A stretch of DNA of 64,000 nt, taken from NCBI GenBank assembly GCA_963749085.1, contig CAVVLG010000003.1:155380-219379 (forward strand). Reading direction: 5' to 3'. Position numbers and translations under genes: made by a program. The notes under the pieces were generated by a model that saw only the letters and a program-made list of their open reading frames with translations, made no database searches and was not told the DNA's origin. Each line of letters opens with the position of its first letter. Position 1 is the first letter of the stretch. Shown here in pieces: positions 8,263-54,395 of the stretch. Source of the DNA: Candidatus Adlerbacteria bacterium. GTDB lineage: Bacteria > Patescibacteriota > Minisyncoccia > Phycocordibacterales > SBAW01.

Positions 8263-8263
8263 G

Positions 8264-8337
8264 TGGGCGCGGAGGGACTCGAACCCCCAACCCCGGATGT
8301 ATAAGATCCGTGCACTAACCAATTGTGCTACGCGCCC
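8264..8337 (-). tRNA. tRNA with anticodon UAU (predicted tRNA-Ile decoding AUA); CCA not encoded
   Basis: Reverse complement GGGCGCGTAGCACAATTGGTTAGTGCACGGATCTTATACATCCGGGGTTGGGGGTTCGAGTCCCTCCGCGCCCA folds as cloverleaf: 7-bp acceptor, U8, GG in D-loop, anticodon loop CUUAUAC, TTCGAGT T-loop. Confidence 0.7.
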
Positions 8338-12705: not shown

Positions 12706-13071
12706 GGGAGTGCAAGGCCTAGACAATACATACGTCTCTCTGCACGCAAGAGGGCAGCGGGGTTCTGCTCTAAAAACTCCAAAGATAACTGGCAAGTCAG
12801 TTCAATCACCGTATGCGGTGAACGGTTTCGCTTTCGCTAACGCCTAAGCGACCGCGCTCGCTTCTCCTCTCCTGAAAGAGAAGGCCGAGTGTTATATCTC
12901 GGGATATAGTTTCGCAAACTGATTCTCTGCGAAATTGAAACTTGGAATCTGCGGCGTAATTCGATTTCGTCCGTTTCATACGAATTATGTCAAAGACCTC
13001 AAAGCGCACTAGCTCTTGTAGACCTGCTTATAGATCTGTATTGCACGAGGGTTCGAATCCCTCCACTTCCA
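12706..13071 (+). ncRNA. ssrA: tmRNA (ssrA), about 366 nt
   Basis: Directly downstream of smpB; 3' tRNA-like T-arm GAGGGTTCGAATCCCTC plus acceptor strand CACTTCC plus discriminator A pairing with 5' GGGAGTG; P2 helix caataca (12724-12730) with tgtattg (13038-13044); in-frame tag ORF ending TAA at 12845-12847, candidate tag GKSVQSPYAVNGFAFANA. Confidence 0.65.
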
Positions 13072-13200
13072 CAAATTCAAAAGCCCTTATTTTTCAAGGC
13101 TTTACAGAGCCAGATGACAGGTGGTTGGAACCGCCGTTTTTGAGGAAATTGTTAATTTAAGCCTTGGAATAAGGAGTTTTTGCGGTTCGAATTCAGTTAC
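13072..13200 (+). repeat. Structured repeat A1 (about 130 nt), first copy, immediately 3' of tmRNA
   Basis: About 85 percent identical to 13731-13858; nested long-range complementarity (cccttattt/aataaggg, caaggct/agcctt) and inner helix with compensatory change. Confidence 0.6.
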
Positions 13201-26701: not shown

Positions 26702-27148
26702 TTACGCTATGGTGCCGCCCGCTTTTTCTATCTTCTCTTTCGCGCTTTTGGAAACGACACAACCAGAAACAGTGAACTTTTTGGTGAGCTCTCCGTCGCC
26801 GAGTATTTTGACCACCGGACTTTTCGACGCGTGTTTGCGCATGCGGATAAGACCGCGCTCAACGAGCATCTTCGGATTGACCGTATCGCCCGGCGCAAAC
26901 GCCATTTCAAGGGAGGAGAGATTCACGACCAAGGGTTTTGCCTGGATGCTGATAAGCCCGCCCACGCCTCGGCCGCGCAATTTTGGAATTTTCTTTATTT
27001 GCTCGCGAATATTCGGCCATATTTTGTGTCCCGCGCGCGCCTTTTGCCCCTTGGTGCCGCGGCCGGCAGTCTTGCCGCGCAACCCGCCGCGACCGACGCG
27101 TTTTTCGCTTTTTCGGGGAGTTTTTCGTTGTAGTTGGTTGAGTTGCAT
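26702..27148 (-). CDS. rplO: 50S ribosomal protein L15
   Basis: KRVGRGGLRGKTAGRG. Confidence 0.85.
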   Translation of the reverse strand: MQLNQLQRKTPRKSEKRVGRGGLRGKTAGRGTKGQKARAGHKIWPNIREQIKKIPKLRGRGVGGLISIQAKPLVVNLSSLEMAFAPGDTVNPKMLVERGLIRMRKHASKSPVVKILGDGELTKKFTVSGCVVSKSAKEKIEKAGGTIA

Positions 27149-27153
27149 AAAGT

Positions 27154-27768
27154 TTAAGCTTTAAGTTTTTTGAGCGCTTCAATGGCGGCGTGCGCATTGT
27201 TGAGACCGTTCTTGCTCCCGGAATGGACTTTGGCGACCGTATTGGTGATGCCCGCAAGCTCCAACACGGGGCGCACGGAAGAACCGGCGACCAGGCCGCG
27301 ACCGTGAGCGGGCATCAGCGACACGCGCGAAGCGCAGTACTTGGCGGAGACCTCGTGCGCTATGGAGGAATCCTTGGTGAGGACAATCGTCAGCAAATTC
27401 TTTTTGGCGTCGCGTACCGCTTTGTCAATCGCAAGCGTCGTGTCCCCCGCCTTACCGAGACCCACGCCGACCTTCCCCTTTTTATTGCCCAGTATGAGTG
27501 CGACCGAGAAAGAGAAGCGTCGTCCGCCGGCCACGACGCGCGCCACGCGGCGGATAGTGATGAGCGACTGGTCAAATTCGCTTTTGCGCTCGGTGCGCCG
27601 ACCCGCGTTCCCGCGGCCTCCACGTCCGCGGCGCTCGCCACGTCCACGGCGATCCCGAGTCCGTCCCGCAGGGGCGTCGGCGGGCACGGGAATATCTGCG
27701 ACGACTTCCTCAATCACTTCAGGCACCTCGGGCTCCACTATTATGTTTTCTTGTATTTCGTCAGCCAT
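27154..27768 (-). CDS. rpsE: 30S ribosomal protein S5 with about 60-aa Arg/Gly-rich N-terminal extension
   Basis: ITIRRVARVVAGGRRFSF S5 core; no L30 gene between rpsE and rplO. Confidence 0.85.
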   Translation of the reverse strand: MADEIQENIIVEPEVPEVIEEVVADIPVPADAPAGRTRDRRGRGERRGRGGRGNAGRRTERKSEFDQSLITIRRVARVVAGGRRFSFSVALILGNKKGKVGVGLGKAGDTTLAIDKAVRDAKKNLLTIVLTKDSSIAHEVSAKYCASRVSLMPAHGRGLVAGSSVRPVLELAGITNTVAKVHSGSKNGLNNAHAAIEALKKLKA

Positions 27769-28621: not shown

Positions 28622-29017
28622 TTACCAAATCTCAAACAACGCTTCGCCGCCGACGCGTTTTTCATGTGCTTCTTTGCCGGAAATAACTCCGCTCGGGGTT
28701 GAGAGCACGAGAAGTCCATGGCCGCGTTTGACCGGTTTGATGTCGTGAACGCCCATATACATGCGGCGCGAGGGTTTTGAAATTCTTTTCACACCCGAGA
28801 TCGCCGGGCGACCATTTTTATAAGAAAGTATTATTGAAAGCGAATTTCCGCCAAGCGGATTCTTAACCGTTTTCAATTCGCTGACATAGCCTTCTTTGGC
28901 GAGAATTTCCGCGATGGCAAGCTTCATGCGCGAGTAGGGCGCCGACACGCGGGACTTGCCCGCCATGGAAGCGTTCTGTAAACGGATAAGCAAATCTGCT
29001 ATTGGGTCGGTTACCAT
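28622..29017 (-). CDS. rpsH: 30S ribosomal protein S8
   Basis: [16 protein letters not shown]. Confidence 0.85.
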
Positions 29018-29196
29018 GATGATTTTCGGATGCCCGGTATAAGCCCCTCGTTGGCAGCTTCTCTGAAGCAGGCGCGGCACATGCCAAAATCGCGCATGAA
29101 GGCGCGTTTGCGCCCGCAGCGGAAACAGCGTCGAACCACCCGGGATTTAAATTTGGGTGGGCGGTTTGACCTTGCAACTGTTGATTTTTTTGCCAT
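29011..29196 (-). CDS. rpsZ: 30S ribosomal protein S14, Zn-ribbon type Z (61 aa)
   Basis: [23 protein letters not shown]. Confidence 0.85.
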
Positions 29197-29236: not shown

Positions 29237-29263
29237 CAGAAAAAAGGAGCCCCGACTGGGCTC
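29237..29263 (-). terminator. Rho-independent terminator closing the island's minus-strand transcript
   Basis: Minus-strand gagcccagtcggggctc followed by cttttttct; lies between island and rpsZ start. Confidence 0.65.
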
Positions 29264-29328
29264 ACAAGATACTACGCGAATTGGATTTAGAAGTCAAATT
29301 ACCTTATAGATTGCAGCGTAGAAGAAGG

Positions 29329-30042
29329 TCAAAATGGTATTTGAGCTTGTACACGATACGACAATATATTCGTGACTGGCACGCACGTACCCATCAGTCT
29401 GGTGCACAATATCCTTTTTCCGACGTATCCATGCAGGTTAAAGATAAAGGCATTGGCGATGCTTTCGGCAACGATGAGTGCAAAAATCGTTGCGGCTGGC
29501 AGAAGCCATTCGTCAGCATAAACAGCATCACGCGCCAGACGGTTGTCGGCTCTGAATTTTTTCAGGCCGCGCAGACGCCTACGCTCGACGAGCCGGCTCG
29601 CCTCCAGCGTCGCGCCGTGAGCAAGCTTTGCCTCTGCAACCGAGGCACGTGCGTCGGCAACCGCGAGTGTCACGTCGAGCTGGCGCGGCATGCGCGCCCG
29701 GATTTTCTCGTCGGCGTCGTGGAGCTGACTTGCGAGAAACTGCTTAAGTAAGTTGGCGCCCGACTGGATTTCAGCCACGATTTGCCGCTGCGGATCGTTC
29801 AGATCGGCATCGTCTTTGTGCGGACGGTTCTCGACGCCATCGTCTCGCGCCCGCTCGACCAAGCGCAATGACCTGGCCAAGCGCTCAAAGGCGGGACGGA
29901 GGTGGTCATTGACCTCCGGTAGCCAGCGAGTACGCGTCCATGTCGGAGATTTGGAGAAGGTATTCATCGAGCCGCGGAAGTTCATGGCAGTCACCTTAAT
30001 TATTGGTTTGAGCGTGGCCAGTTGTCGCCTGGCTGAAGACAT
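29329..30042 (-). CDS. Hypothetical charged helical protein with C-terminal TM (tail-anchored); contains direct repeat DR1 in its 3' end
   Basis: 237-aa ORF in GC-rich segment; overlapping plus-strand ORF 29224-29751 judged spurious; coding status uncertain. Confidence 0.35.
   Translation of the reverse strand: MSSARRQLATLKPIIKVTAMNFRGSMNTFSKSPTWTRTRWLPEVNDHLRPAFERLARSLRLVERARDDGVENRPHKDDADLNDPQRQIVAEIQSGANLLKQFLASQLHDADEKIRARMPRQLDVTLAVADARASVAEAKLAHGATLEASRLVERRRLRGLKKFRADNRLARDAVYADEWLLPAATIFALIVAESIANAFIFNLHGYVGKRILCTRLMGTCVPVTNILSYRVQAQIPF
29400..29437. repeat. 38-bp perfect direct repeat DR1 (tggtgcacaatatcctttttccgacgtatccatgcagg)
   Basis: Identical copy at 33679-33716; partial copy ggtgcacaata..tccgacg at 33579-33601. 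Confidence 0.9.
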
Positions 30043-30187
30043 CCATGCTTTCGCTGGGTGGTGAGCACAAACTCTTCGCTAAGAAGGTGTCTAAGCGGGA
30101 TCTGTTTTTTGAACAAAGGCATTGCCGGTGCACTAAATGTGAAGAACGGCGTTTCAGGGTTCGAACGCTTCTCGACTACTTGCGCTG

Positions 30188-31249
30188 ATGTGTGGCCGAA
30201 GCTTCGGATTTTTGAGCGCCCGGCGCAGCGTCATTGAATCTTTCGATCGAGAAGGCTATGTCCGCTTACGCGAAGTGGTTGCTCAGAACCCCGAAATTCG
30301 AGTTGCAGGCTTGGCGCAGGGCGGTGGGTGTCTGAAAAAAAGTGCGCTGATATCAACCGAGAAATGGGCGGGTGGGGAGATGGTCATCGAGCGGAAGGCC
30401 GAAAATTTCAGGTTTTTCCATCCGCGGGAGCCCTGGGGTAAAGGCGGGACTGATTATGTCCAGGTGCATTGTCGTCTGGACGATTTATACGGAATGACTG
30501 GACCGGACGCTGAAACAAATAAAGGGCTCTATAACGCGGCAAAGAGTGAAGGCAATTTTAGGGCCGCATACGAGATAATAGTTAGGCATCGCTCCGAGGA
30601 AAAGTTGAAGGCTCTGAAAGAGGTTATTGCCACGTTGAAGACGCCTGCGCTTTTCGTTTATCCACGGAAGCTGGATTTTGGTGACTCGGGCCGCACATTG
30701 GACCCGGAGAGGCCTACGAACGCCTTGCCGGTGACGCTTACCCGGTTCGTAAGCGCGCGAGTAGGCGGAGAGATATGCAAGGACATAATCCAGATGAGGA
30801 TAAGAAAGCGGACGACTCTCAATCGTCTAATACGCTTTCTTTATCAGCCGGCTTTTAAGGGCCGGGTCATTCCTGGCAGGCGATATGTTCTTGTGGACGA
30901 TGTCATTTCATCGGGGGCGCTATTCGCCTCTCTTCGAAGTCACATCGTGAAGGGCGGCGGCCTTGTCATCGGCATGACAGCGCTTGCGCATGTATCAGGT
31001 AGAGATCAGAAATTGGCGATTTCAAGGGATTCGCTGCAGGCAATGAGGATCGAATTTGGCGAAAAGATTGATGCTTTCTGGAACGGGAAGTTCGGGCACG
31101 GAATTGAGCACCTTACCGACCAAGAAGCAAAGTACCTCTTGGGTCGCTGGCGCTCGCAGCATCAGAGCATTCTGTCGGGTTCTCAGCTGCTTGAATGCCT
31201 TGCTGGCGAGATCGAGCATATTCAAATAGCACACTCCAAATATTCGTAG
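30188..31249 (+). CDS. Phosphoribosyltransferase (PRTase type I) domain protein with about 230-aa uncharacterised N-terminal region
   Basis: RRYVLVDDVISSGALFASL PRPP-binding motif; start codon uncertain (no obvious RBS). Confidence 0.55.
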   Translation: MCGRSFGFLSARRSVIESFDREGYVRLREVVAQNPEIRVAGLAQGGGCLKKSALISTEKWAGGEMVIERKAENFRFFHPREPWGKGGTDYVQVHCRLDDLYGMTGPDAETNKGLYNAAKSEGNFRAAYEIIVRHRSEEKLKALKEVIATLKTPALFVYPRKLDFGDSGRTLDPERPTNALPVTLTRFVSARVGGEICKDIIQMRIRKRTTLNRLIRFLYQPAFKGRVIPGRRYVLVDDVISSGALFASLRSHIVKGGGLVIGMTALAHVSGRDQKLAISRDSLQAMRIEFGEKIDAFWNGKFGHGIEHLTDQEAKYLLGRWRSQHQSILSGSQLLECLAGEIEHIQIAHSKYS

Positions 31250-31297
31250 ATCGCAGTATTTTGCCTTATAATTCATGCTTTTTCATGCTCCCTTGAC

Positions 31298-31332
31298 AAT
31301 TGTACTGTATTTGATAGTATATCCAAAGTTGT
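31298..31332 (+). promoter_or_regulatory. Promoter (TTGACA-16-TAGTAT) overlapped by repeated TTGTACT(G/T)TA / GTAC palindromic operator-like sites
   Basis: cccttgacaattgtactgtatttgatagtatatccaaagttgtactttacagcagtac upstream of ORF 31375. Confidence 0.45.
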
Positions 31333-31374
31333 ACTTTACAGCAGTACTTCGTCAAATCTCCAGTCCGATCCTCG

Positions 31375-31671
31375 GTGCCTGACAAATCGGGCATCGACAA
31401 CTCGGAATGGAGGTTGCTAATGGCACATTCACAATGTTGCAGCGCAAACTCGCCTGACGCGTCACGCGCTGATATCGAAGACGAAGCTTGTCGTCGGCTG
31501 ATGATTTCGCTCTACGGCAGTGAAGCCGAGGCGAGGCTTGTCGCTGAGGCCCTCTTACGGGACATAACGCCCGAAGAGGAGGAACTGATCGAGCGGCGGT
31601 ACAATGCCGGCGACCAAATCGCTGACCAAATTGTGCGCGAGCTTGGTTTCCCTCCCGAACCGGAAAGATAA
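31375..31671 (+). CDS. Small HTH protein, sigma-70 region-4-like (98 aa)
   Basis: ITPEEEELIERRYNAGDQIADQIVREL resembles region 4.2 HTH; C-terminal 55 aa duplicated at N-terminus of ORF 32704. Confidence 0.5.
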   Translation: MPDKSGIDNSEWRLLMAHSQCCSANSPDASRADIEDEACRRLMISLYGSEAEARLVAEALLRDITPEEEELIERRYNAGDQIADQIVRELGFPPEPER

Positions 31672-31715
31672 GGTGAGGGTGGCCGAGCGAGCAATTGGTA
31701 AGCGACTTCGACTTA

Positions 31716-31745
31716 AGACCCCGTAAATGCGGGGTCTTTTTGTAT
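31716..31745 (+). terminator. Rho-independent terminator
   Basis: aagaccccgtaaatgcggggtcttttt. Confidence 0.75.
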
Positions 31746-31855
31746 GCGCTTTATTTTTGGGTATTCTTCAAAAAACGGTGCTGGTTTGGACACTCTGGGT
31801 ACATAGGGTCGCTTAGCCTATCATAGTGGAGTAGAACTCTAGCACGAGAACGGCA

Positions 31856-32707
31856 ATGATACGACTGCAGCAAGCTAGAGTCTCGAAACGCGGTCCAATT
31901 CCGATGGAACGTCGGCGACCATGCGACTATTTAAAAGCACTGACCCCGGCGCATATGAGGGACGTTCGTGAGCATTTAAAAGCAATATACGCGGTGTATT
32001 CAGGGCGTCAGTTGGCGGACGATTGTGCCCAAGTAGCAATACTGTTCCTGTGGAAATACCCCTATGACTTAGAAATCGGTCCGTCCATGGGGGATGAACG
32101 CGATGCCGCTTGGTACGTAGCTGTACATAATTCGCTTCTGCGCTTCGCCAAGTCTCGCGAATTTAGAGGGTCGGTATTGCGGACCGTTTATAAGGGCAAC
32201 TTTAGCAAAGTGTCCCAAACAGAATCCGAAGGCGAACAAGACCCAGATCCAAATTGGGATACGAGCATTCGATGGTTTGAGGGTAATCTCCATTGGGAAA
32301 AGGTTTTCAAAAGTTTCCGAGCATTTTTGGCGGAGCAACCGGATATCGATCCCCTAGAGATTCAGTTGATCGACCAGCTCCACAAAAACGCCGTGCGTGA
32401 GACGATAGATGAAGGAATGGAAGATGTTTTTCGAGGCGAGAGCTTTCAAGTCGTTCACCAGCCGCTGCTAGAAGCATTGCAAGAGCATTTTCGAGCAACA
32501 GGCTGGAATATTGAAATGGTGCGAGTAACGCTCGCGAAAATTCGCCGTCATGCGATCCAATATCGGGAATCTCTAACCACTGGTGACCTTTTAGAATTTC
32601 ATGGACCCCTTCGAACTCAAGCAGATAGCCAATCGTCTATCGAGAAGAAGAAATCCAATGCCGAGCTTTGTCAGCAGACAACATCGACCAAAAGGCCAGT
32701 ATCATGA
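31856..32707 (+). CDS. Hypothetical protein with ECF-sigma region-2-like N-terminal part
   Basis: QLADDCAQVAILFLWKY and AWYVAVHNSLLRFAKSRE resemble sigma-70 regions 2.2 and 2.4; ATGA-overlapped with next gene. Confidence 0.4.
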   Translation: MIRLQQARVSKRGPIPMERRRPCDYLKALTPAHMRDVREHLKAIYAVYSGRQLADDCAQVAILFLWKYPYDLEIGPSMGDERDAAWYVAVHNSLLRFAKSREFRGSVLRTVYKGNFSKVSQTESEGEQDPDPNWDTSIRWFEGNLHWEKVFKSFRAFLAEQPDIDPLEIQLIDQLHKNAVRETIDEGMEDVFRGESFQVVHQPLLEALQEHFRATGWNIEMVRVTLAKIRRHAIQYRESLTTGDLLEFHGPLRTQADSQSSIEKKKSNAELCQQTTSTKRPVS

Positions 32708-33570
32708 CCAAAAAACCCACCCCTGTGAGCGGAACGACAAACGAAGACGAAGCTTGTCGTCGGCTGATGATTTCGCTCTACGGCAGTGAAGCCGAGGCGA
32801 GGCTTGTCGCTGAAGCCCTCTTACGGGACATAACGCCAGAAGAGGAGGAACTGATCGAGCGGCGGTACAATGCCGGCGACCAAATCGCTGACCAAATTGT
32901 GCGCGAAGCTGGATTAGAGTCAAAAGTGCCGGCCGCGATGGGTTATGACGTTGATATCCCGTTCACCGAAGAACAGGAAAAGGAATTTGTCTCATTCGTG
33001 GAAGCAGTTTATCGCCGAGCAGAAGATCAACAAGATCGCACTGCACCTTTAGAGCGAGTTCCAGCTGGCGTCCTGGGCGCTCTGGCAGAACTCGGGCATG
33101 TTGCAGCGGCTAAAGTGGTGTCCGTAGCCGATGTAGTTGGGGAATGGCTATCTTTGCCTTTGCAGGCCTTTAATACGATCGACCTCGCGTACGGGAAGCC
33201 TGCTTTAGCGACTGCCGAGGTCGCTAGCGAACAGGTGCTGCATAAAGTCGGCAAGCGTGTTTTTCTGGCTGACCTAGGCGCAGAAAGCTCGCAGCTAGCG
33301 GAGAGCAAATGGCGATCTGCTGAGATAAGATTGATATTGTCAATTAATTCGCGTCGCGAAATTGATGACGTGAGCATCACGGCTCGTGGAAGTGAACTCG
33401 ATAAATTGACGAATGAAATTCTTGATGTGCGCCTGAGGGATCGAGCGGGTAACAAGCGGACCATTGCTCTTTCTCGGGAACGGCTGCAAGGCTACATGCG
33501 AGGTAAATCACTTTCCGGCGATCTCGCAGAATTAGAGCTACTGGTTCATGTCGACCATCGACCAACGTAA
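32704..33570 (+). CDS. Hypothetical protein with N-terminal sigma-region-4-like HTH (duplicated module)
   Basis: N-terminal 55 aa identical to C-terminus of ORF 31375 (165 nt, 2 mismatches). Confidence 0.5.
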   Translation: MTKKPTPVSGTTNEDEACRRLMISLYGSEAEARLVAEALLRDITPEEEELIERRYNAGDQIADQIVREAGLESKVPAAMGYDVDIPFTEEQEKEFVSFVEAVYRRAEDQQDRTAPLERVPAGVLGALAELGHVAAAKVVSVADVVGEWLSLPLQAFNTIDLAYGKPALATAEVASEQVLHKVGKRVFLADLGAESSQLAESKWRSAEIRLILSINSRREIDDVSITARGSELDKLTNEILDVRLRDRAGNKRTIALSRERLQGYMRGKSLSGDLAELELLVHVDHRPT

Positions 33571-33678
33571 GCTACCGGGGTGCACAATAGAACCTCCGAC
33601 GCTGATCGGCGCTATCGCTCGCGAACTCGAACGTGAGTTGAATGAAGCGATTCCCGCGGAGCTGAAAAGTTGTCGGCT

Positions 33679-33716: not shown

Positions 33717-33733
33717 AGCCAGTAAATTAAGGC

Positions 33734-34045
33734 TTATTTGACTATCCGCACAATCTCATACGCGGGCTTGCCCGTGATGGCCTGTAGCGTCTCATGCCCT
33801 ATGCTAGCATCCTTTGTGCACGACGCACACATAGCGAACGAATAATGCGAATCAGTCTTTCCGCAGAACAGAGTCTTCAGTTTGCTGTCGAGCGACACAC
33901 GTTCCTCCCGATATAAGGTCCCAATATACAGCTTTTTATGTAGCGGCCTGAGCCCAAAATCCTTGCACCAATTCTCAGCCTGTCGCGTCCTGCGCCAGTT
34001 ACGCGTTTGCCAGGATACGACTACCGTAAATAGCAGATTGTTCAT
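33734..34045 (-). CDS. cas2: Putative CRISPR-associated endoribonuclease Cas2
   Basis: Immediately follows cas1 (6-nt gap); about 100 aa; N-terminal LLFTVVVS..RRTRQ pattern like E. coli-type Cas2 (MLVVVTENVPPRLRGRL). Confidence 0.5.
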   Translation of the reverse strand: MNNLLFTVVVSWQTRNWRRTRQAENWCKDFGLRPLHKKLYIGTLYREERVSLDSKLKTLFCGKTDSHYSFAMCASCTKDASIGHETLQAITGKPAYEIVRIVK

Positions 34046-34051
34046 AGTGTG

Positions 34052-35062
34052 TTAGAGCAGCAAGGAGAAATCAAATGCTGCATATGTGTCCTGCTTTTCC
34101 AAGAAATAGCGGGCAAGCGCCCTGCTTTGCTCCTCGATAATTACTTGGAGGGTGCGTTGCTTGCCTTTCCATTTTACCGTTTTATTAAGCTGTTTGAATA
34201 CTGCCTCAACTACCTTGGCCTTCCCCTCGGGAGAGAGCCGGTACTCCGTGTTGTTTACTTTCTCAAAATCGCCCCGCCTGCCCAGCTTTTTTTCGAGAAA
34301 GAGCGGAAAGATTGCCGAATCCACCACTGGCACGCGGAATTCTTCGACCATGTCCAAAACTAGGGCCGGTTTGCCATAACGCTCGGAGTGATACAAGCCA
34401 AGGTACGGGTCAAGGCCGATATAGAGGCAGGCACGTTCTACTTCGTTGTAGAGAATGCCGTAGCCGTAGTTGATAGCACTGTTGAATTTGTCGCGGCCTT
34501 GCGGGATGCGACCCGGAAACTTATGTAATTGCCTAAGCGATTGCCAATACTTTTCTGCAATGAATCCTTCGATGCCGAACAACTGCTCGCGAGCCTTGTC
34601 GCTCGGAGGAATGGTATTGATGGTCTTGGAGAGCGTCTCGGCCTGAACGATTCCCTTTTCAAAGTCAGCTCCGCACTTGGCCATCAAGAATTTCAAATAG
34701 GTGATTTGGTTTTTGCATTTTCCCGCGATGAAGCTTTTGGCGAGCGAGAGCGCCTGCGGAAGGTCAGTCGCGACCTCGAGCTGGGCGCGTCGAGTCGTAG
34801 CTAACCCTCGCGCATCACTGCCAAAAATCCTGCCGACAGGTTTGCCGAAGGATCCGAGATACACGATGTCAACTTCGTGCTCAAGGGCAAGCTTTACGGC
34901 GTGGGTCGAAATGGAAGAGGGCCGAAGAATGACGATTTTGCTGAGCCTGCGTATCGGATATTCTTTGGTAATCCGCTTCTTGGTCTTCGAGGGCAGGCGC
35001 AAGACAAGGCGCTCACCTGTCGAACCTATATACGTGCCGTAGGTGTCGATGAGGAGGTCCAT
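34052..35062 (-). CDS. cas1: CRISPR-associated endonuclease Cas1 (start trimmed to MDLLIDTYG)
   Basis: NSAINYGYGILYNEVERACLYIGLDPYLGLYH...LVLDMVEEFRVPVVD matches Cas1 catalytic His/Asp signature; upstream part of listed ORF overlaps rplE and is discarded. Confidence 0.85.
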   Translation of the reverse strand: MDLLIDTYGTYIGSTGERLVLRLPSKTKKRITKEYPIRRLSKIVILRPSSISTHAVKLALEHEVDIVYLGSFGKPVGRIFGSDARGLATTRRAQLEVATDLPQALSLAKSFIAGKCKNQITYLKFLMAKCGADFEKGIVQAETLSKTINTIPPSDKAREQLFGIEGFIAEKYWQSLRQLHKFPGRIPQGRDKFNSAINYGYGILYNEVERACLYIGLDPYLGLYHSERYGKPALVLDMVEEFRVPVVDSAIFPLFLEKKLGRRGDFEKVNNTEYRLSPEGKAKVVEAVFKQLNKTVKWKGKQRTLQVIIEEQSRALARYFLEKQDTYAAFDFSLLL

Positions 35063-35083: not shown

Positions 35084-35110
35084 TAATAAAAAAGGATACC
35101 AGAAGTATCC
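35084..35110 (-). terminator. Rho-independent terminator after rplE, upstream of cas1
   Basis: Minus-strand ggatacuucugguaucc followed by U6. Confidence 0.65.
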
Positions 35111-35153: not shown

Positions 35154-35690
35154 CTACTTTTTGAACGGGAACCCGAGGTGTGCGAGATACTCCTCGGCTT
35201 CTTTTTTATTTTTCGCAGTGGTGACGATAGTCGTCGCCATACCGAACACGTCCTTAAGTTCTTCATCGGTGGTCTCTGGAAAAACAATATGTTCTTTGAT
35301 GCCAAGTGTATAGTTGCCCATTTCATCAATGGCACCTTTTGAGATTCCTTTGAAGTCTTTAGTGCGCGGGAGCGCCACATGGATGAGACGGTTCAAAAAA
35401 TCTTCGGCACGCTTGCCGCGCAGTGTTACTTGGTATCCTACTTTGTCGCCAATGCGCGTTTTGTACGTCGCAATGGACTTTTTGGCTCCTCGCGTGGCTG
35501 GTTTTTGTCCTGTTATCTTTGCCAAGCGGTCGGCAACCAATTCAACCTTCGGTTTATCCTTGGCCATCTTGCCCACACCAACTGAAATAACCACTTTTTC
35601 TATACGCGGTACTTGCATGGCGTTTTTCCATTTGAATTCGGTTTTCAAAGCGCTGAAAGCCTTTTTCTGTTTGACTTGAATAAGTTCCAT
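35154..35690 (-). CDS. rplE: 50S ribosomal protein L5
   Basis: Full-length L5 similarity. Confidence 0.9.
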   Translation of the reverse strand: MELIQVKQKKAFSALKTEFKWKNAMQVPRIEKVVISVGVGKMAKDKPKVELVADRLAKITGQKPATRGAKKSIATYKTRIGDKVGYQVTLRGKRAEDFLNRLIHVALPRTKDFKGISKGAIDEMGNYTLGIKEHIVFPETTDEELKDVFGMATTIVTTAKNKKEAEEYLAHLGFPFKK

Positions 35691-50554: not shown

Positions 50555-52228
50555 TCAAATGACATCGACAATGCGGATCCGAGGAGAACCCCTCCAATCC
50601 AGTTCGACGTGGCCGACCACATCGACGCGGGCGCCCTGTTCTATCTTTTTTTGAAACGAGTCCAGGGTCGAGAAAAAGGCGATGCCTTTAATACGTGCAT
50701 CAATAAACCCAAGTTCAGTCGAAGCATCGCTTATACTCACCTCAAGATGATTATTCGTTTTGCCGAAGGTGCGCACACTGCCGACGGAGACATTTGAAAA
50801 TATAAAAAGAGGTTTTTCATTGCCGATGCCGAACGGCGCGAGCTTCCTTACATCGCGCATGGCGTGGGGCACGTCGGCCAATTGCATTTGCCTATCAACG
50901 ACAATTTCCATCTCCTTGCTCGCTGACGTGGATAATTTTTCGTAAGCACTTTGCAAACGAGTGGGGAGCTCGTGCACCTTCTCCTGCGTCAAAGAAAATC
51001 CCCCGGCACCCTGGTGTCCGCCGAACTCGGCAAACACGTCGCTCACTTCCTGCATGCACGCAACGACATTTAAAATACCGTCGGAACGACACGATCCTTT
51101 TATATCTTCGCCTCCCTCGCGCCCCCACAAAAAAACGGGTTTGCCGTGTGTCTCAACCAAAGCGCTTGCCACCAGTCCCAATATTCCCGGCCGCCAATTG
51201 GGATTGCCGAGTACGATAATGGGGCTTGGCATGCTGCCCGACGCAAGGCGTTTGTTCGCTTCCTTGACCGTCGCGGCGACAACGCCTTTGCGTTCATCGT
51301 TGAGTGTCTGCAATTGCTGAGCCAGACGCTCCGCCTCCTCTCTCTCTGTAGCCGCAAGCAAGTGCGCGGCGGTCGAAGGACTTCCCATTCTCGAGGCGGC
51401 GTTGATACGGGGCGAAATCATAAATCCGATGTCATCCTCGGTGAGCGCTCGGGGTTCAATGCGAAGCATCCGCAGAAGCGCGTTTAATCCCGGACGCCGC
51501 GCTCGGCGCATGACGGTGAGACCGAAGTGCGCGAGCATGCGGTTCTCCCCTACGAGCGGCACCATGTCGGAAAGGGTCGCAATGCCGACCAAATCGAGCA
51601 GCCATTTTTCCTGTCCCTCAGGAGTAGTGAACGCATTCGTTAGAAGAATTGCCTGTACTAACTTCCAGGCGACCCCTGCGCCGCATAGACCGTCAAACGG
51701 ATATTTCGAATCCACGCGTTTGGGATTTATCACGGCATAGGCGGGGGGCAGATCATGAGCGACCAGGTGATGATCCGTCACAATGACATCGATATGTTTA
51801 TCCCTCGCGTAGGCGATGCCCGCGTGCTCGCTCGTGCCAAGGTCGATGGTGATAATGAGGGTGACGCCAAGCGACGCGAGCTCCTCTATTCCTTCAGTAT
51901 TCAATCCGTAGCCTTCCGCGTACCGGTGCGGAATATAGTGTGTGACCGATACACCTAGACCGCGCAAAAACTCACTGAGCATGACGCCGCCCGGGATGCC
52001 GTCGCAGTCATAATCGCTCCACACCGCCACCTGCTCACTGTTTTTCGACGCAGCGACGATGCGCTCAACCGCCCGTTTCATGTCGGGGAGAAGATAGGGA
52101 TCATGGCTGTCGCGCACAAAATCAGGTTCCAGAAACTTCTCCGCGTCACTCTGCGCTATACCGCGTGCCTGGAGCAAATCGTTGAGAAGTTCTTCGTGTG
52201 CTCGCTCCCGGAGTCGGTACTTTTTCAT
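50555..52228 (-). CDS. recJ: Single-stranded-DNA-specific exonuclease RecJ
   Basis: DHH motifs DYDCDGI, ITIDLG, VTDHH; DHHA1 domain. Confidence 0.8.
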   Translation of the reverse strand: MKKYRLRERAHEELLNDLLQARGIAQSDAEKFLEPDFVRDSHDPYLLPDMKRAVERIVAASKNSEQVAVWSDYDCDGIPGGVMLSEFLRGLGVSVTHYIPHRYAEGYGLNTEGIEELASLGVTLIITIDLGTSEHAGIAYARDKHIDVIVTDHHLVAHDLPPAYAVINPKRVDSKYPFDGLCGAGVAWKLVQAILLTNAFTTPEGQEKWLLDLVGIATLSDMVPLVGENRMLAHFGLTVMRRARRPGLNALLRMLRIEPRALTEDDIGFMISPRINAASRMGSPSTAAHLLAATEREEAERLAQQLQTLNDERKGVVAATVKEANKRLASGSMPSPIIVLGNPNWRPGILGLVASALVETHGKPVFLWGREGGEDIKGSCRSDGILNVVACMQEVSDVFAEFGGHQGAGGFSLTQEKVHELPTRLQSAYEKLSTSASKEMEIVVDRQMQLADVPHAMRDVRKLAPFGIGNEKPLFIFSNVSVGSVRTFGKTNNHLEVSISDASTELGFIDARIKGIAFFSTLDSFQKKIEQGARVDVVGHVELDWRGSPRIRIVDVI

Positions 52229-52249
52229 CAAAATAAGTATACTAGAGGA

Positions 52250-52660
52250 ATGGGGAACTGTATCTTCTGCAAAATAGTCGGAGGCGAGATACCCTCGTAC
52301 AAAATCTATGAGGACAAAGACACGTTCGCATTCCTTGATATCCATCCAGTCAATCCAGGTCACACGTTAGTCATACCGAAGGCCCATTCGTATAACATCC
52401 TCGATATTGACCCAAAAGACTGGCTCGCTGTTTCAGATACGGTACGAAAGATATCCCGCATACTGCACGACGCCATCCAGGCCGACGGCATTAACTTGCA
52501 AATGAACAACCGAGAACATGCGGGACAGGTTGTCGATCACCCTCATGTGCACGTGATTCCGCGTTACAAAGGAGACGGCCTCCCCCACTGGCCCGGCAAA
52601 ACGTACAAAGCAGGCGAAGCGGAGGAACTACTGAAGAAAATACAAGCGGTAATGAAATAA
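52250..52660 (+). CDS. HIT-family (histidine triad) nucleotide hydrolase
   Basis: HPHVHVIPR; AGAGGA RBS; start 21 nt from divergent recJ start. Confidence 0.8.
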   Translation: MGNCIFCKIVGGEIPSYKIYEDKDTFAFLDIHPVNPGHTLVIPKAHSYNILDIDPKDWLAVSDTVRKISRILHDAIQADGINLQMNNREHAGQVVDHPHVHVIPRYKGDGLPHWPGKTYKAGEAEELLKKIQAVMK

Positions 52661-52668
52661 AAATCCGT

Positions 52669-53646
52669 TTATTCCTTCTCCTTCAAGACTTCTATACCTG
52701 GCAACGTGCCTGCCACCAAAAACTCAAGTGCGGCTCCCCCGCCGGTTGAGATAAAGATTTTCTGAAGATCAAACGAGAATGTGGCGAGCGCCGCCGCCGT
52801 ATCTCCGCCGCCGATAACCGCCCTGATGCCGAAATCCACTAATGCTTGCGCCAGCGCATGGGTACCTTCGGCATAGCCTTTTTCATACCAACCAACGGGA
52901 CCATCCCATAGTACAAAGGAGGCATGCTGAATCTCTCGCACCCACGCATCCTTTGTGCGAGGACCGATATCAAACATCTCCTTAAATTGCGGTACGCCAT
53001 CTTCAGGCAACAGTACATTGGATGCGGGCTTTTGGAGAAGTTCATTGGCAAGTGCGCCGCCCACGAGTACTTTGCTATATATACGTGATAATTTGTCGAT
53101 GAGTGGAAGTTTCGTTTCAAATTTATTGCCTCCGATGATTGCGAGCGAGGGAGTCGGCGGAGTGAGCGCTTGCGAAAGATTGGCGATTTCTTTCTCAACT
53201 AGAAGCCCGGCGTAGGCAGGCAAGAAGTTTGTGATGCCTACTATCGAAGCGTGCGAGCGGTGCAGTGCGGCGAATGCGTCATTGACAAATATATCCGCCT
53301 GCGCGGCAAGGATTCGTGCAAACGCGGGATCGTTTGCTTCTTCGCCCGGGTTAAAGCGCAAATTCTCGAGCATTTCGATATTCGTCGTATCAATGAGCCC
53401 TTGCAGATGTTTAAAGATAGGCTTGGTGCTGAGATCTGGCACGACTGTGCCGTTGGGACGACCCACGTGGGTCGCCAACACAATTGTAGCCACCCTATGC
53501 TCACGCAGGAGCGCGATGGTTGGGAGCGTTGCCCGAATACGCGAATCATCTCTGACTACTCCATCTTTAAGGGGTACATCGTAATCAACACGCAGGAACA
53601 CGCGCTTACCTTCCACCGGTGCTTGTTCTATGGACCTTATTTGCAT
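52669..53646 (-). CDS. pgk: Phosphoglycerate kinase (short form, 325 aa)
   Basis: VFLRVDYDVPL, RFNPGEE, Gly-rich ATP site. Confidence 0.8.
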   Translation of the reverse strand: MQIRSIEQAPVEGKRVFLRVDYDVPLKDGVVRDDSRIRATLPTIALLREHRVATIVLATHVGRPNGTVVPDLSTKPIFKHLQGLIDTTNIEMLENLRFNPGEEANDPAFARILAAQADIFVNDAFAALHRSHASIVGITNFLPAYAGLLVEKEIANLSQALTPPTPSLAIIGGNKFETKLPLIDKLSRIYSKVLVGGALANELLQKPASNVLLPEDGVPQFKEMFDIGPRTKDAWVREIQHASFVLWDGPVGWYEKGYAEGTHALAQALVDFGIRAVIGGGDTAAALATFSFDLQKIFISTGGGAALEFLVAGTLPGIEVLKEKE

Positions 53647-54395
53647 CGTGTGAGAATGCCCATAAACGAATCCAGCTGCGCGCTTGCGTGTCCCACCAAA
53701 AAACCGTTTACATTCCCTTCGGTGATGAGGACGTGGGCATTGTCGGGCTCAACCGAGCCCCCATAGAGTAGGGGGACGCGCATTGCAATCTTGCGCTCGA
53801 ACATATCCGTCAACGTTTTTTTAATAAAGATACTCATCTCACGCACGTCATGCGGCTTCATCGCGTCCTCGGCACTTTTGCCTATAGCCCAGACCGGCTC
53901 GTAGGCGATGACCAGTTTCGAAGGAGATAGTTTCGGAATCTGTTTGAGAGCCGAGGAGAGTTGCGCTTCAACAAATGAAAAGTGGGCGCCTCCGGCGTCG
54001 CGCTCTGCCTCACCGACGCATAAAATGGAGGTAAGGCCCGCAGCGGCGACCGAACGGAGCTCCTCGTGGACCATAGCATTGGACTCTCCCGCCGCGCGAC
54101 GCTCGGAATGGCCCACAATGACGAAAGAGGCTCCTGCTTGTTTGAGCATCGGGGCAGACACTTCGCCTGTGTGCTTCTCTCCAGCAAAAGAAGAAGCCGC
54201 TTGGGCGCCGACTTTTATCGACGAGCCTTTAAGCGCCGTCGCGACCGCGGGTATAAGAGGATGCGGAGGAGCCAGTACGACGTCAACGCCGTTGAATGCG
54301 CGGCCCTTTTTGCGCAACGCAGCGGCAAATGCCCTTGCCTCCTCGGGAGACTCTATGTACATCTTCCAATTCCCGACCACGAGGCGCTTGGACAT
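53637..54395 (-). CDS. tpiA: Triosephosphate isomerase
   Basis: VGNWKM, VGHSERR, AYEPVWAIG. Confidence 0.85.
   Translation of the reverse strand: MSKRLVVGNWKMYIESPEEARAFAAALRKKGRAFNGVDVVLAPPHPLIPAVATALKGSSIKVGAQAASSFAGEKHTGEVSAPMLKQAGASFVIVGHSERRAAGESNAMVHEELRSVAAAGLTSILCVGEAERDAGGAHFSFVEAQLSSALKQIPKLSPSKLVIAYEPVWAIGKSAEDAMKPHDVREMSIFIKKTLTDMFERKIAMRVPLLYGGSVEPDNAHVLITEGNVNGFLVGHASAQLDSFMGILTRCK

Follow-up and report, generated by a model that had tools for sequence, protein, structure and literature searches.

The closest described counterparts of the protein considered here are encoded by plasmids and other invasive elements. In KfrC of plasmid RA3, the N-terminal 240 residues form a type I phosphoribosyltransferase (PRT) domain that is toxic in excess, and the protein binds KfrA, KorB, VirD4, and VirB4 and has a host-dependent effect on plasmid stability (PMC8124265). 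Iyer, Burroughs, Anand, de Souza, and Aravind (2017) described a distinct group of phosphoribosyltransferases (PRTases) of invasive elements, solo versions included, that share a conserved Arg with ComFC-like PRTases and whose role, termed "enigmatic", is possibly tied to DNA entry, with nucleotide production or sensing proposed (PMC5512222). These PRTases were reported mainly from Proteobacteria and Verrucomicrobia (PMC5512222), whereas the protein described here is a solo form from a host that is probably Patescibacteria-like. It is encoded by an open reading frame (ORF) in a 64,000-nt stretch of contig CAVVLG010000003.1 (hereafter the window) and is a stand-alone member of the clade formed by the KfrC N-terminal domain and the invasive-element PRTases, with a type I PRTase core and a fold closest to that of ComFC. 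Conjugative plasmids, integrative and conjugative elements (ICEs), and phages carry this clade, whose members stand alone, form the N-terminal domain of KfrC, or are one module of giant polyvalent proteins. The window protein is a new member of this known, functionally enigmatic mobile-element family. In the joint explanation that we regard as likely, its gene is a mobile-element passenger in a 4,241 bp fragment bounded by the repeats of a mobile cas1-cas2 module located between rplE and rpsN.

A stand-alone PRTase of the KfrC type

Conservation of residues 79-353 of the ORF extends to more than 1,300 representative proteins, and this region aligns over its full length with the N-terminal domain of the plasmid protein KfrC, which means that the ∼230 aa upstream of the phosphoribosyl pyrophosphate (PRPP)-binding motif, where the initial annotation saw no recognizable family, do have one. 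An exhaustive HMMER search returned 1,329 cluster representatives at E ≤ 1e-3. Solo homologs of ∼285-295 aa span the whole query, and the core (query residues 177-320) is also embedded in proteins of 2,000-4,700 aa. Three giant homologs carry LPD38/LPD39, ART-PolyVal, InPase, and GGDEF domains and are, because of these domains, regarded as polyvalent proteins of phages and conjugative elements. Solo forms and recurrence in polyvalent proteins of 2-4.7 kaa with LPD38/39, ART-PolyVal, and InPase are shared with the invasive-element PRTases of Iyer et al. An hhalign comparison with residues 6-247 of IncP-1 KfrC gave a probability of 100 (E = 9.6e-40, 242 columns), and PHROG 22413 matches the protein at E = 4.5e-27. 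With KfrC of IncP-1 alpha plasmids RK2/PB5 and IncU plasmid RA3, the window protein has in common the N-terminal helices, the PRTase core, the C-terminal helices, and carriage by conjugative elements; the two differ in that identity is 32% (BLASTP, E = 2e-30) and the last Thr of the PRPP loop is lost in the window protein.

The ORF and its parts are located as follows.

30188-31249, plus strand: ORF as reported, 353 aa, of which the first 64 codons are probably untranslated
30380-31249, plus strand: likely true coding sequence (CDS) of the stand-alone KfrC-N-type, invasive-element PRTase-fold protein, 289 aa
30419-30643, plus strand: N-terminal strand and three-helix subdomain, residues 14-88 of the 289 aa form, kept in the family and in KfrC
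30887-30919, plus strand: PRPP-loop motif VLVDDVISSGA, residues V234-A244 of the 353 aa ORF

The likely product has 289 aa (30380-31249) and not the 353 aa initially assigned, because of where homologs start and because a purine-rich stretch lies upstream of Met65 and is absent before Met1. None of nine close homologs (50-69% identity, 200-300 aa in length) begins before Met65, and two start at this position. Conservation among homologs starts at query residue ∼79 (REPWGKGGTDYVQVH), and the first 64 codons are not conserved. Judged from these alignments, Met65 is probably the true start of the CDS.

The motif VLVDDVISSGA, initially described as canonical for PRPP binding, is present and, in a search of PDB sequences, YVLVDDVISSGAL of the window PRTase aligns with the PRPP loop of solved adenine PRTases. 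The word canonical applies in part. The family consensus YILVDDVxTxGGT is canonical, the window subclade has SSGAL or SSGAS and with it has lost the last Thr, and no Pfam model, PF00156 included, matches the ORF at E ≤ 1. The DD pair of the loop is invariant in 57 relatives in the family alignment, and N114, R144, T145, R152, and Q156 are likewise invariant or nearly so across the PRTase family. Family-specific motifs PTNALP and GRTKL…RFLxQPxFxG are also present. Matches in NCBIfam, the PDB sequence search, and PADLOC are weak and extend over ∼40 residues centered on the loop (adenine and orotate PRTases, ComF, and ShosT), with NCBIfam scores of 11-20 bits against cut-offs of 143-322, such that no curated threshold is passed. 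The motif is therefore genuine, but the protein is remote from every curated PRTase model. Full-length homology to any salvage enzyme was looked for in NCBIfam and the PDB and not found, in agreement with the initial view that this is not a housekeeping salvage enzyme.

An AlphaFold (AF2) model of the 289 aa form, built on a 57-sequence alignment, had a predicted local distance difference test score (pLDDT) of 91 and a predicted template modeling score of 0.89; it replaced a 9-sequence run with a pLDDT of 54.6. The predicted architecture consists of an N-terminal strand and three-helix subdomain, a PRT core, and C-terminal helices. Foldseek, whose use the initial annotation had proposed, matched 84 PDB chains of PRTase fold at E ≤ 1e-3, a signal that, like the hhalign one, is far above chance. 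The 50 of them listed all belong to PRTases, PRPP synthetases, PyrR, or ComF; Helicobacter pylori ComF/ComFC (7p0h) is the best match (E = 4e-5), with type I PRTases and PRPP synthetases next. Matches in BFVD were generic PRTases only. The model and the structural matches bear out the early description of a PRTase-fold protein with additional noncatalytic parts.

The likeness to ComFC is one of fold and of a conserved Arg-rich segment after strand 2 (R-x-R-T-x-L-x-R). In other respects, the two proteins differ. The template modeling (TM) score of 7p0h against the window model is just 0.37 over 165 columns with 13% identity, the PRT core alone being matched, and the ComF model TIGR00201 matches only 40 residues of the ORF (E = 0.097). 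ComFC has an N-terminal four-Cys zinc finger, whereas the window protein has no Cys cluster, and no comFA or comEC is found in its context.

The distribution of the family is that of a mobile-element domain. A tblastn search of PLSDB identified 154 plasmids with a match (56 conjugative and 58 mobilizable), in which the matches are annotated as "phosphoribosyltransferase", "KfrC", or "stable inheritance protein". For PB5, an IncP-1 plasmid, the match corresponds to KfrC's N-terminal half, encoded in a kfrA-kfrB-kfrC operon between incC-korB and Tra1. A profile scan of GTDB found distant relatives only (≤36% identity), mostly in Alphaproteobacteria, and the close subclade was absent there. Contexts of family members include a plasmid with ParA, RPA, TraG, and MobA (L024), an integrase-AlpA-PrimPol island (L026), and an element with an integrase, a Replic_Relax protein, and a type IV coupling protein (T4CP)-like gene (L001).

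Three solo family members have distinct immediate neighbors. One lies between the integrase and AlpA genes of the PrimPol island (L026, 9446-12340), one adjoins a DUF499/DUF1156/SNF2 helicase cluster on the MobA/TraG plasmid (L024, 10001-18870), and one is beside a DUF5343 gene inside an apparently split AbrB-family gene (L004, 9043-10861).

In its native element, the PRTase would bind PRPP or a nucleotide through the DD loop and the family-specific Asn, Arg, and Gln residues. Its role would be an accessory one, in establishing or maintaining the element, by analogy with KfrC, which forms complexes with KfrA, the ParB-like KorB, and the coupling protein (PMC8124265). The protein could instead be an active counterdefense or establishment enzyme of the mobile element that acts on a nucleotide or signal at DNA entry, a reading that we consider unlikely despite several points in its favor. 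The DD motif and N114, R144, T145, R152, and Q156 are invariant or nearly so, and in polyvalent proteins, the neighbors of this domain are enzymatic conflict domains. Nucleotide production or sensing at DNA entry was the proposal of Iyer et al. (PMC5512222), and the PRT domain of KfrC is toxic in excess. However, this alternative has no known substrate to point to, it has to accommodate a subclade that lacks the PRPP-loop Thr, and the documented properties of KfrC are protein-protein interactions (PMC8124265).

The island and the origin of the insert

The PRTase gene is in an island of ∼5.95 kb that splits the normally tight rplE-rpsN junction. On the minus strand, the gene order is L14-L24-L5, island, and S14-S8-L6-L18-S5-L15-SecY. 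In cas orientation, the layout is a hairpin and T-run, cas1, cas2, leader, repeat (33716-33679), 4,241 bp, repeat (29437-29400), 200 nt, and rpsN. The initial impression of a mobile-looking island next to cas1-cas2 was well founded, with the cas genes 2.5 kb from the PRTase gene. Features of the island and its flanks are listed in order of position.

29011-29196, minus strand: rpsN (S14, Zn type), right-hand chromosomal flank (Pfam Ribosomal_S14, E = 1e-19)
29329-30042, minus strand: orphan ORF o237m, with a predicted membrane helix cut by the distal repeat
29400-29437, minus strand: distal 38-nt repeat copy (in cas orientation CCTGCATGGATACGTCGGAAAAAGGATATTGTGCACCA), 100% identical to the other copy
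29438-33678, no strand: insert between the repeat copies, 4,241 bp, with o237m, the PRTase gene, o98, o283, and o300
31375-31671, plus strand: o98, a small acidic protein whose core recurs at the o300 N terminus
31856-32707, plus strand: o283, 47% identical to the syntenic L001 gene
32668-33570, plus strand: o300, with its N-terminal 123 aa homologous to the syntenic L001 gene
33679-33716, minus strand: leader-proximal 38-nt repeat copy, identical to the distal copy
33717-33733, minus strand: short leader of 17 nt from the cas2 stop to the first repeat (…CCTTAATTTACTGGCT), conserved across related loci
33734-34045, minus strand: divergent Cas2, 103 aa, with Trp at the catalytic Asp position and a conserved CxxC pair
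34052-35062, minus strand: Cas1, 336 aa, with catalytic Glu/His/Asp motifs present (Pfam, E = 6e-67; TIGR00287, E = 5e-68; PDB 4n06, E = 1e-32)
35094-35110, minus strand: hairpin and T-run ∼30 nt upstream of cas1, marking the left boundary of the transferable cas module
35154-35690, minus strand: rplE (L5), left-hand chromosomal flank (from its translation and the operon order)

The identical 38-mers are direct repeats 4,279 nt apart, and 0 such pairs are expected in shuffled sequence. A scan of the window with Tandem Repeats Finder (TRF) revealed no array. Of the insert genes, those for the PRTase, o98, o283, and o300 are on the strand opposite to the cas genes. A candidate third, degenerate repeat at 33578-33613 (CGTCGGA…TATTGTGCACC, 65 nt inside the insert) was rejected; the repeat hidden Markov model (HMM) gives it no score, and it may be chance. 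The sequence at this position resembles the 3′ two-thirds of the repeat.

The block of the PRTase gene, o98, o283, and o300 is syntenic with contig L001 at 47-59% aa identity. Encoded on L001 are a tyrosine integrase and a Replic_Relax protein, along with a T4CP-like gene. None of these is found in the window insert, which for this reason looks like a piece of an L001-type element. A 174-nt duplication with 97% identity (31476-31649 and 32742-32915) repeats the core of o98 at the N terminus of o300; because the same arrangement is found in L001, the duplication belongs to the element family and did not arise during assembly. An independent Logan k = 31 contig (L003) extends unbroken from within the distal repeat 2.1 kb into the insert. 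The best reading is that the PRTase gene is passenger DNA of mobile-element origin, neither a host salvage enzyme nor a partner of Cas1-Cas2. The four-gene block would derive from an integrative, mobilizable element. A horizontally transferred module of cas1, cas2, leader, and repeat would have landed between rplE and rpsN, and Cas1-Cas2 would have integrated a kilobase-long fragment at the leader-proximal repeat, duplicating the repeat.

Other observations concern the ribosomal-protein operon and the remainder of the window. Immediately upstream of rpsN, the minus strand carries a terminator-like hairpin (29247-29263) and a promoter-like site (29269-29297), which gives the impression that the operon's downstream half has acquired signals of its own. 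No rpmD (L30) separates rpsE from rplO (27148-27154), and S5 has a long charged N-terminal extension; a Patescibacteria/CPR-like host is probable. ARAGORN predicts a tRNA-Ile with a TAT anticodon (8263-8337) and a tmRNA (12706-13072) with the tag GKSVQSPYAVNGFAFANA.

The cas1-cas2 clade and its kilobase inserts

The cas module was compared with 16 metagenomic loci encoding Cas1 at 59-82% identity to that of the window. In all related loci whose sequence extends there, cas1 is followed by the same Cas2. A profile of this Cas2 has only Cas2 among its PDB matches, and 7 of 10 members have weak matches to Pfam CRISPR_Cas2. Across the clade, Cas2 has Trp in place of the catalytic Asp and a nearly invariant C-x-x-C pair near the C terminus. 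The ratio of nonsynonymous to synonymous substitution rates (dN/dS) for Cas1 is 0.04-0.10 relative to relatives, which indicates strong purifying selection. Wherever sequence continues downstream of cas2, a short conserved leader (…CCTTaTTTtACnGGCT) is present together with a homologous repeat of 37-38 nt (CCTGCA-N8-GTCGCAcAAaGG-N3-TTGTGCAaC), the latter degenerate in L037 and L038. Nucleotide homology between loci stops precisely where the first repeat ends. The repeat has no Rfam family, and an exact search for the repeat core in genome contigs and viral contigs returned nothing.

Comparison of chromosomal contexts indicates that the module is mobile. The window (50558-54389) has the same recJ-HIT-pgk-tpiA block as L027 (1789-5920) and L028, and in the window, the tpiA site is without cas genes. 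Cas1 of the window and L027 are 79% identical, as against 37-62% for the RecJ, HIT, Pgk, and TpiA proteins. This difference, together with the empty tpiA site, indicates that the unit of cas1, cas2, leader, and repeat moves horizontally between distant hosts. The hairpin and T-run (GGAyAC-loop-GTrTCC-TTTTTTATT) ∼30 nt upstream of cas1 is shared with L027, L028, L031, and L035 in differing chromosomal contexts and travels with the cas module. Neighbors with a family match in L027 and L028 are housekeeping genes (recJ, HIT, pgk, tpiA, and pilC) or encode a transposase. In the 64 kb window, no ORF exceeds 730 aa, the largest being those of RecG, FtsH, and RecJ, and no effector gene is in sight.

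Individual loci vary in other ways. Instead of the hairpin and T-run, L029, L030, L032, and L039 have a motif, GTCGCACAA, that matches the repeat core ∼85 nt upstream of cas1. In L039 (1533-2267), cas1 breaks off at codon 234, where a complete repeat copy follows without a gap, and the remainder of cas1 as well as the entire cas2 are missing. Past this repeat, the sequence is homologous to the one behind the L030 repeat. A deletion arising at the repeat may account for this arrangement. On a more distant branch, a 441 aa protein with a serine-recombinase-like N terminus (RYCLYARKS…) is encoded divergently beside cas1 (L036, 473-1798; L042, 8537-9862). The PilC of L028 is 48% identical to one in a metagenome-assembled genome of Saccharibacteria.

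The repeats of this clade are separated by kilobases. Inter-repeat distances are 4,279 nt in the window, 7,709 nt in L027, and 1,299 and 1,519 nt in L028. In no locus with sequence there is a second repeat located within 100 nt of the first, and none has an ordinary spacer. The further repeat copies in L027 and L028 are identical, and the duplicated stretch is exactly the repeat unit. The L027 insert encodes tail-fiber-like and minor-tail-like proteins, and its sequence is collinear with that of a viral contig of 43 kb from IMG/VR (L045; 72% over 3,680 nt). Their homology begins at most 4 nt away from the edge of the repeat, at a point 222 nt into a phage ORF of 733 aa, and L045 has no repeat-like sequence at the junction position. 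In an IS256-type transposase gene past the second repeat of L027, homology to the Pfam profile is lost at position 270 of 379, right where the repeat has its edge. Because genes at their ends are truncated, the inserts are fragments of foreign genomes and not self-contained elements or cassettes. No motif or protospacer adjacent motif (PAM)-like sequence is common to the insert ends. Searches of viral contigs with Cas1, o283, the tail-like protein of L036, and the minor-tail protein of L027 returned nothing. A model in which inserts give rise to antisense RNA is not supported, since the orientation of insert genes relative to the leader is inconsistent (antisense in the window and sense in L027 and L028).

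The duplication of a whole repeat around foreign fragments beside a conserved leader makes integration of very long DNA by Cas1-Cas2 the simplest account, and we infer that Cas1-Cas2 was the agent of insertion. It is possible, and we tentatively propose, that the clade is a mobile, effector-less adaptation module that integrates kilobase-sized phage or conjugative DNA with whole-repeat duplication, its inserts being "giant spacers". Adaptation in CRISPR systems has in common with these loci cas1-cas2, a leader that is conserved, a repeat of 37-38 nt that is duplicated exactly and in full on either side of foreign DNA, and inserts of phage and ICE origin. It differs in that spacers are ∼30-40 bp, whereas inserts here are 1.3-7.7 kb, no locus has an ordinary spacer, effector genes are not nearby, and the module is horizontally mobile. 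Casposons and integrons likewise use a Cas1-family or dedicated integrase to place kilobase DNA at a defined site, and gene-bearing inserts separated by repeats resemble the cassette arrays of integrons. Unlike in casposons, Cas2 is present, the flanking copies are direct and not inverted, and no PolB or other polymerase was found. Unlike in integrons, there is no IntI and there are no attC hairpins, and insert ends cut genes, as in fragments and not cassettes. No description of kilobase inserts between Cas1-Cas2 repeats was found in the literature. The nearest case is the documented integration of prophages into CRISPR repeats of Streptococcus pyogenes (bioRxiv 10.1101/2020.10.09.333658).

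The prophage case is a precedent for a different history, in which a whole ICE or prophage integrated into the repeat, by its own recombinase or by homologous recombination with an element-borne repeat, and then decayed. The tyrosine integrase of the related element L001 and the serine recombinase beside cas1 in L036 and L042 are also consistent with this history. Yet no recombinase is encoded inside any of the four inserts, and what is duplicated is the host-specific variant of the repeat, from first to last base, in three different hosts. The phage relative of the L027 insert lacks a repeat-like site, and the junction falls inside a structural gene. Decay would, moreover, require deletions that end exactly at the edges of repeats. 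We consider this history decidedly improbable.

An assembly chimera would make the inserts artifacts. An ordinary short array could have spacers that are identical to a co-occurring plasmid or phage and let an assembler walk into that element and back, which would explain why insert ends abut complete repeats in the way that spacer ends do, and all three multirepeat loci indeed come from metagenome assemblies. However, the final k of the usual assemblers for metagenomes exceeds the 30-40 nt of such spacers. The same architecture was recovered from three independent projects, the Logan k = 31 contig L003 crosses 2.1 kb of the insert without a branch ∼35 nt in, and loci with sequence downstream of cas2 have not one ordinary spacer after the first repeat. 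A chimera is accordingly an explanation to which we give little credence.

Counterevidence and implications

Several observations weigh against the joint explanation, in which a KfrC-N-type PRTase gene is a passenger within a fragment bounded by the repeats of a mobile cas1-cas2 module. Regarding the kinship with KfrC, the window protein ends after the PRT domain, whereas KfrC continues into a C-terminal part for dimerization and binding of KorB and VirD4. No similarity to KfrA was found among the window neighbors, and neither kfrA nor kfrB is adjacent. Regarding function, no member of the clade is known to have an enzymatic or a binding activity, and the loss of the last PRPP-loop Thr suggests from the alignment that the subclade may bind but not catalyze. 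Regarding origin, more remote members of the family are also found as solitary copies in chromosomes that show no evident mobile-element genes, and no source element identical to the window insert was found. The orphan o237m is probably a gene 3′-truncated by the insert boundary, as suggested by the cut membrane helix only; no homologs were found with which the truncation could be confirmed. Finally, a second repeat is present in only three loci (four inserts), all of them from metagenome assemblies.

The weakest alternative, raised by the initial annotation, is that the PRTase is a host defense effector, such as a retron- or ShosT-like toxin, that works with or is regulated by the adjacent cas1-cas2, and it is not supported and largely refuted, hence very improbable in our assessment: although the gene is 2.5 kb from cas2 and its product shares a PRTase fold and DD loop with ShosT and retron-associated PRTase effectors, the weak PADLOC match to ShosT (E = 0.008) is confined to 52 residues at the PRPP loop (residues 221-272) and is no full-length profile match, the genomic niche is another one, the partners ShosA/DprA, reverse transcriptase, and msr-msd are absent among window neighbors (domain scans; Rfam finds nothing), a repeat separates the PRTase gene from cas2 on the opposite strand, and the proposed check of co-occurrence gave cas1 or cas2 in 0 of 28 loci with a family member (352 kb) and, in reverse, the PRTase in 0 of 16 loci with a close Cas1 relative.

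A previously unannotated ORF is now tied to the PRTase clade of KfrC and polyvalent proteins, a widespread domain of mobile elements, and its compact solo form, modeled with very high confidence, would suit biochemistry. If the inserts are real, Cas1-Cas2 can install DNA ∼100 times the length of a spacer. This would bear on the evolution of CRISPR adaptation from casposon-like integrases, on the role of stand-alone cas1-cas2 in lineages from which CRISPR immunity is said to be absent, and on the insertion of long DNA with Cas1-Cas2 as a tool. A giant-spacer system, if true, would represent CRISPR-type acquisition without the ∼35 bp ruler, functionally between casposons, CRISPR adaptation, and integrons, and the PRTase gene would be a passenger in one giant spacer. 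Such a system could serve gene capture, or RNA- or dosage-based immunity, in bacteria with reduced genomes.

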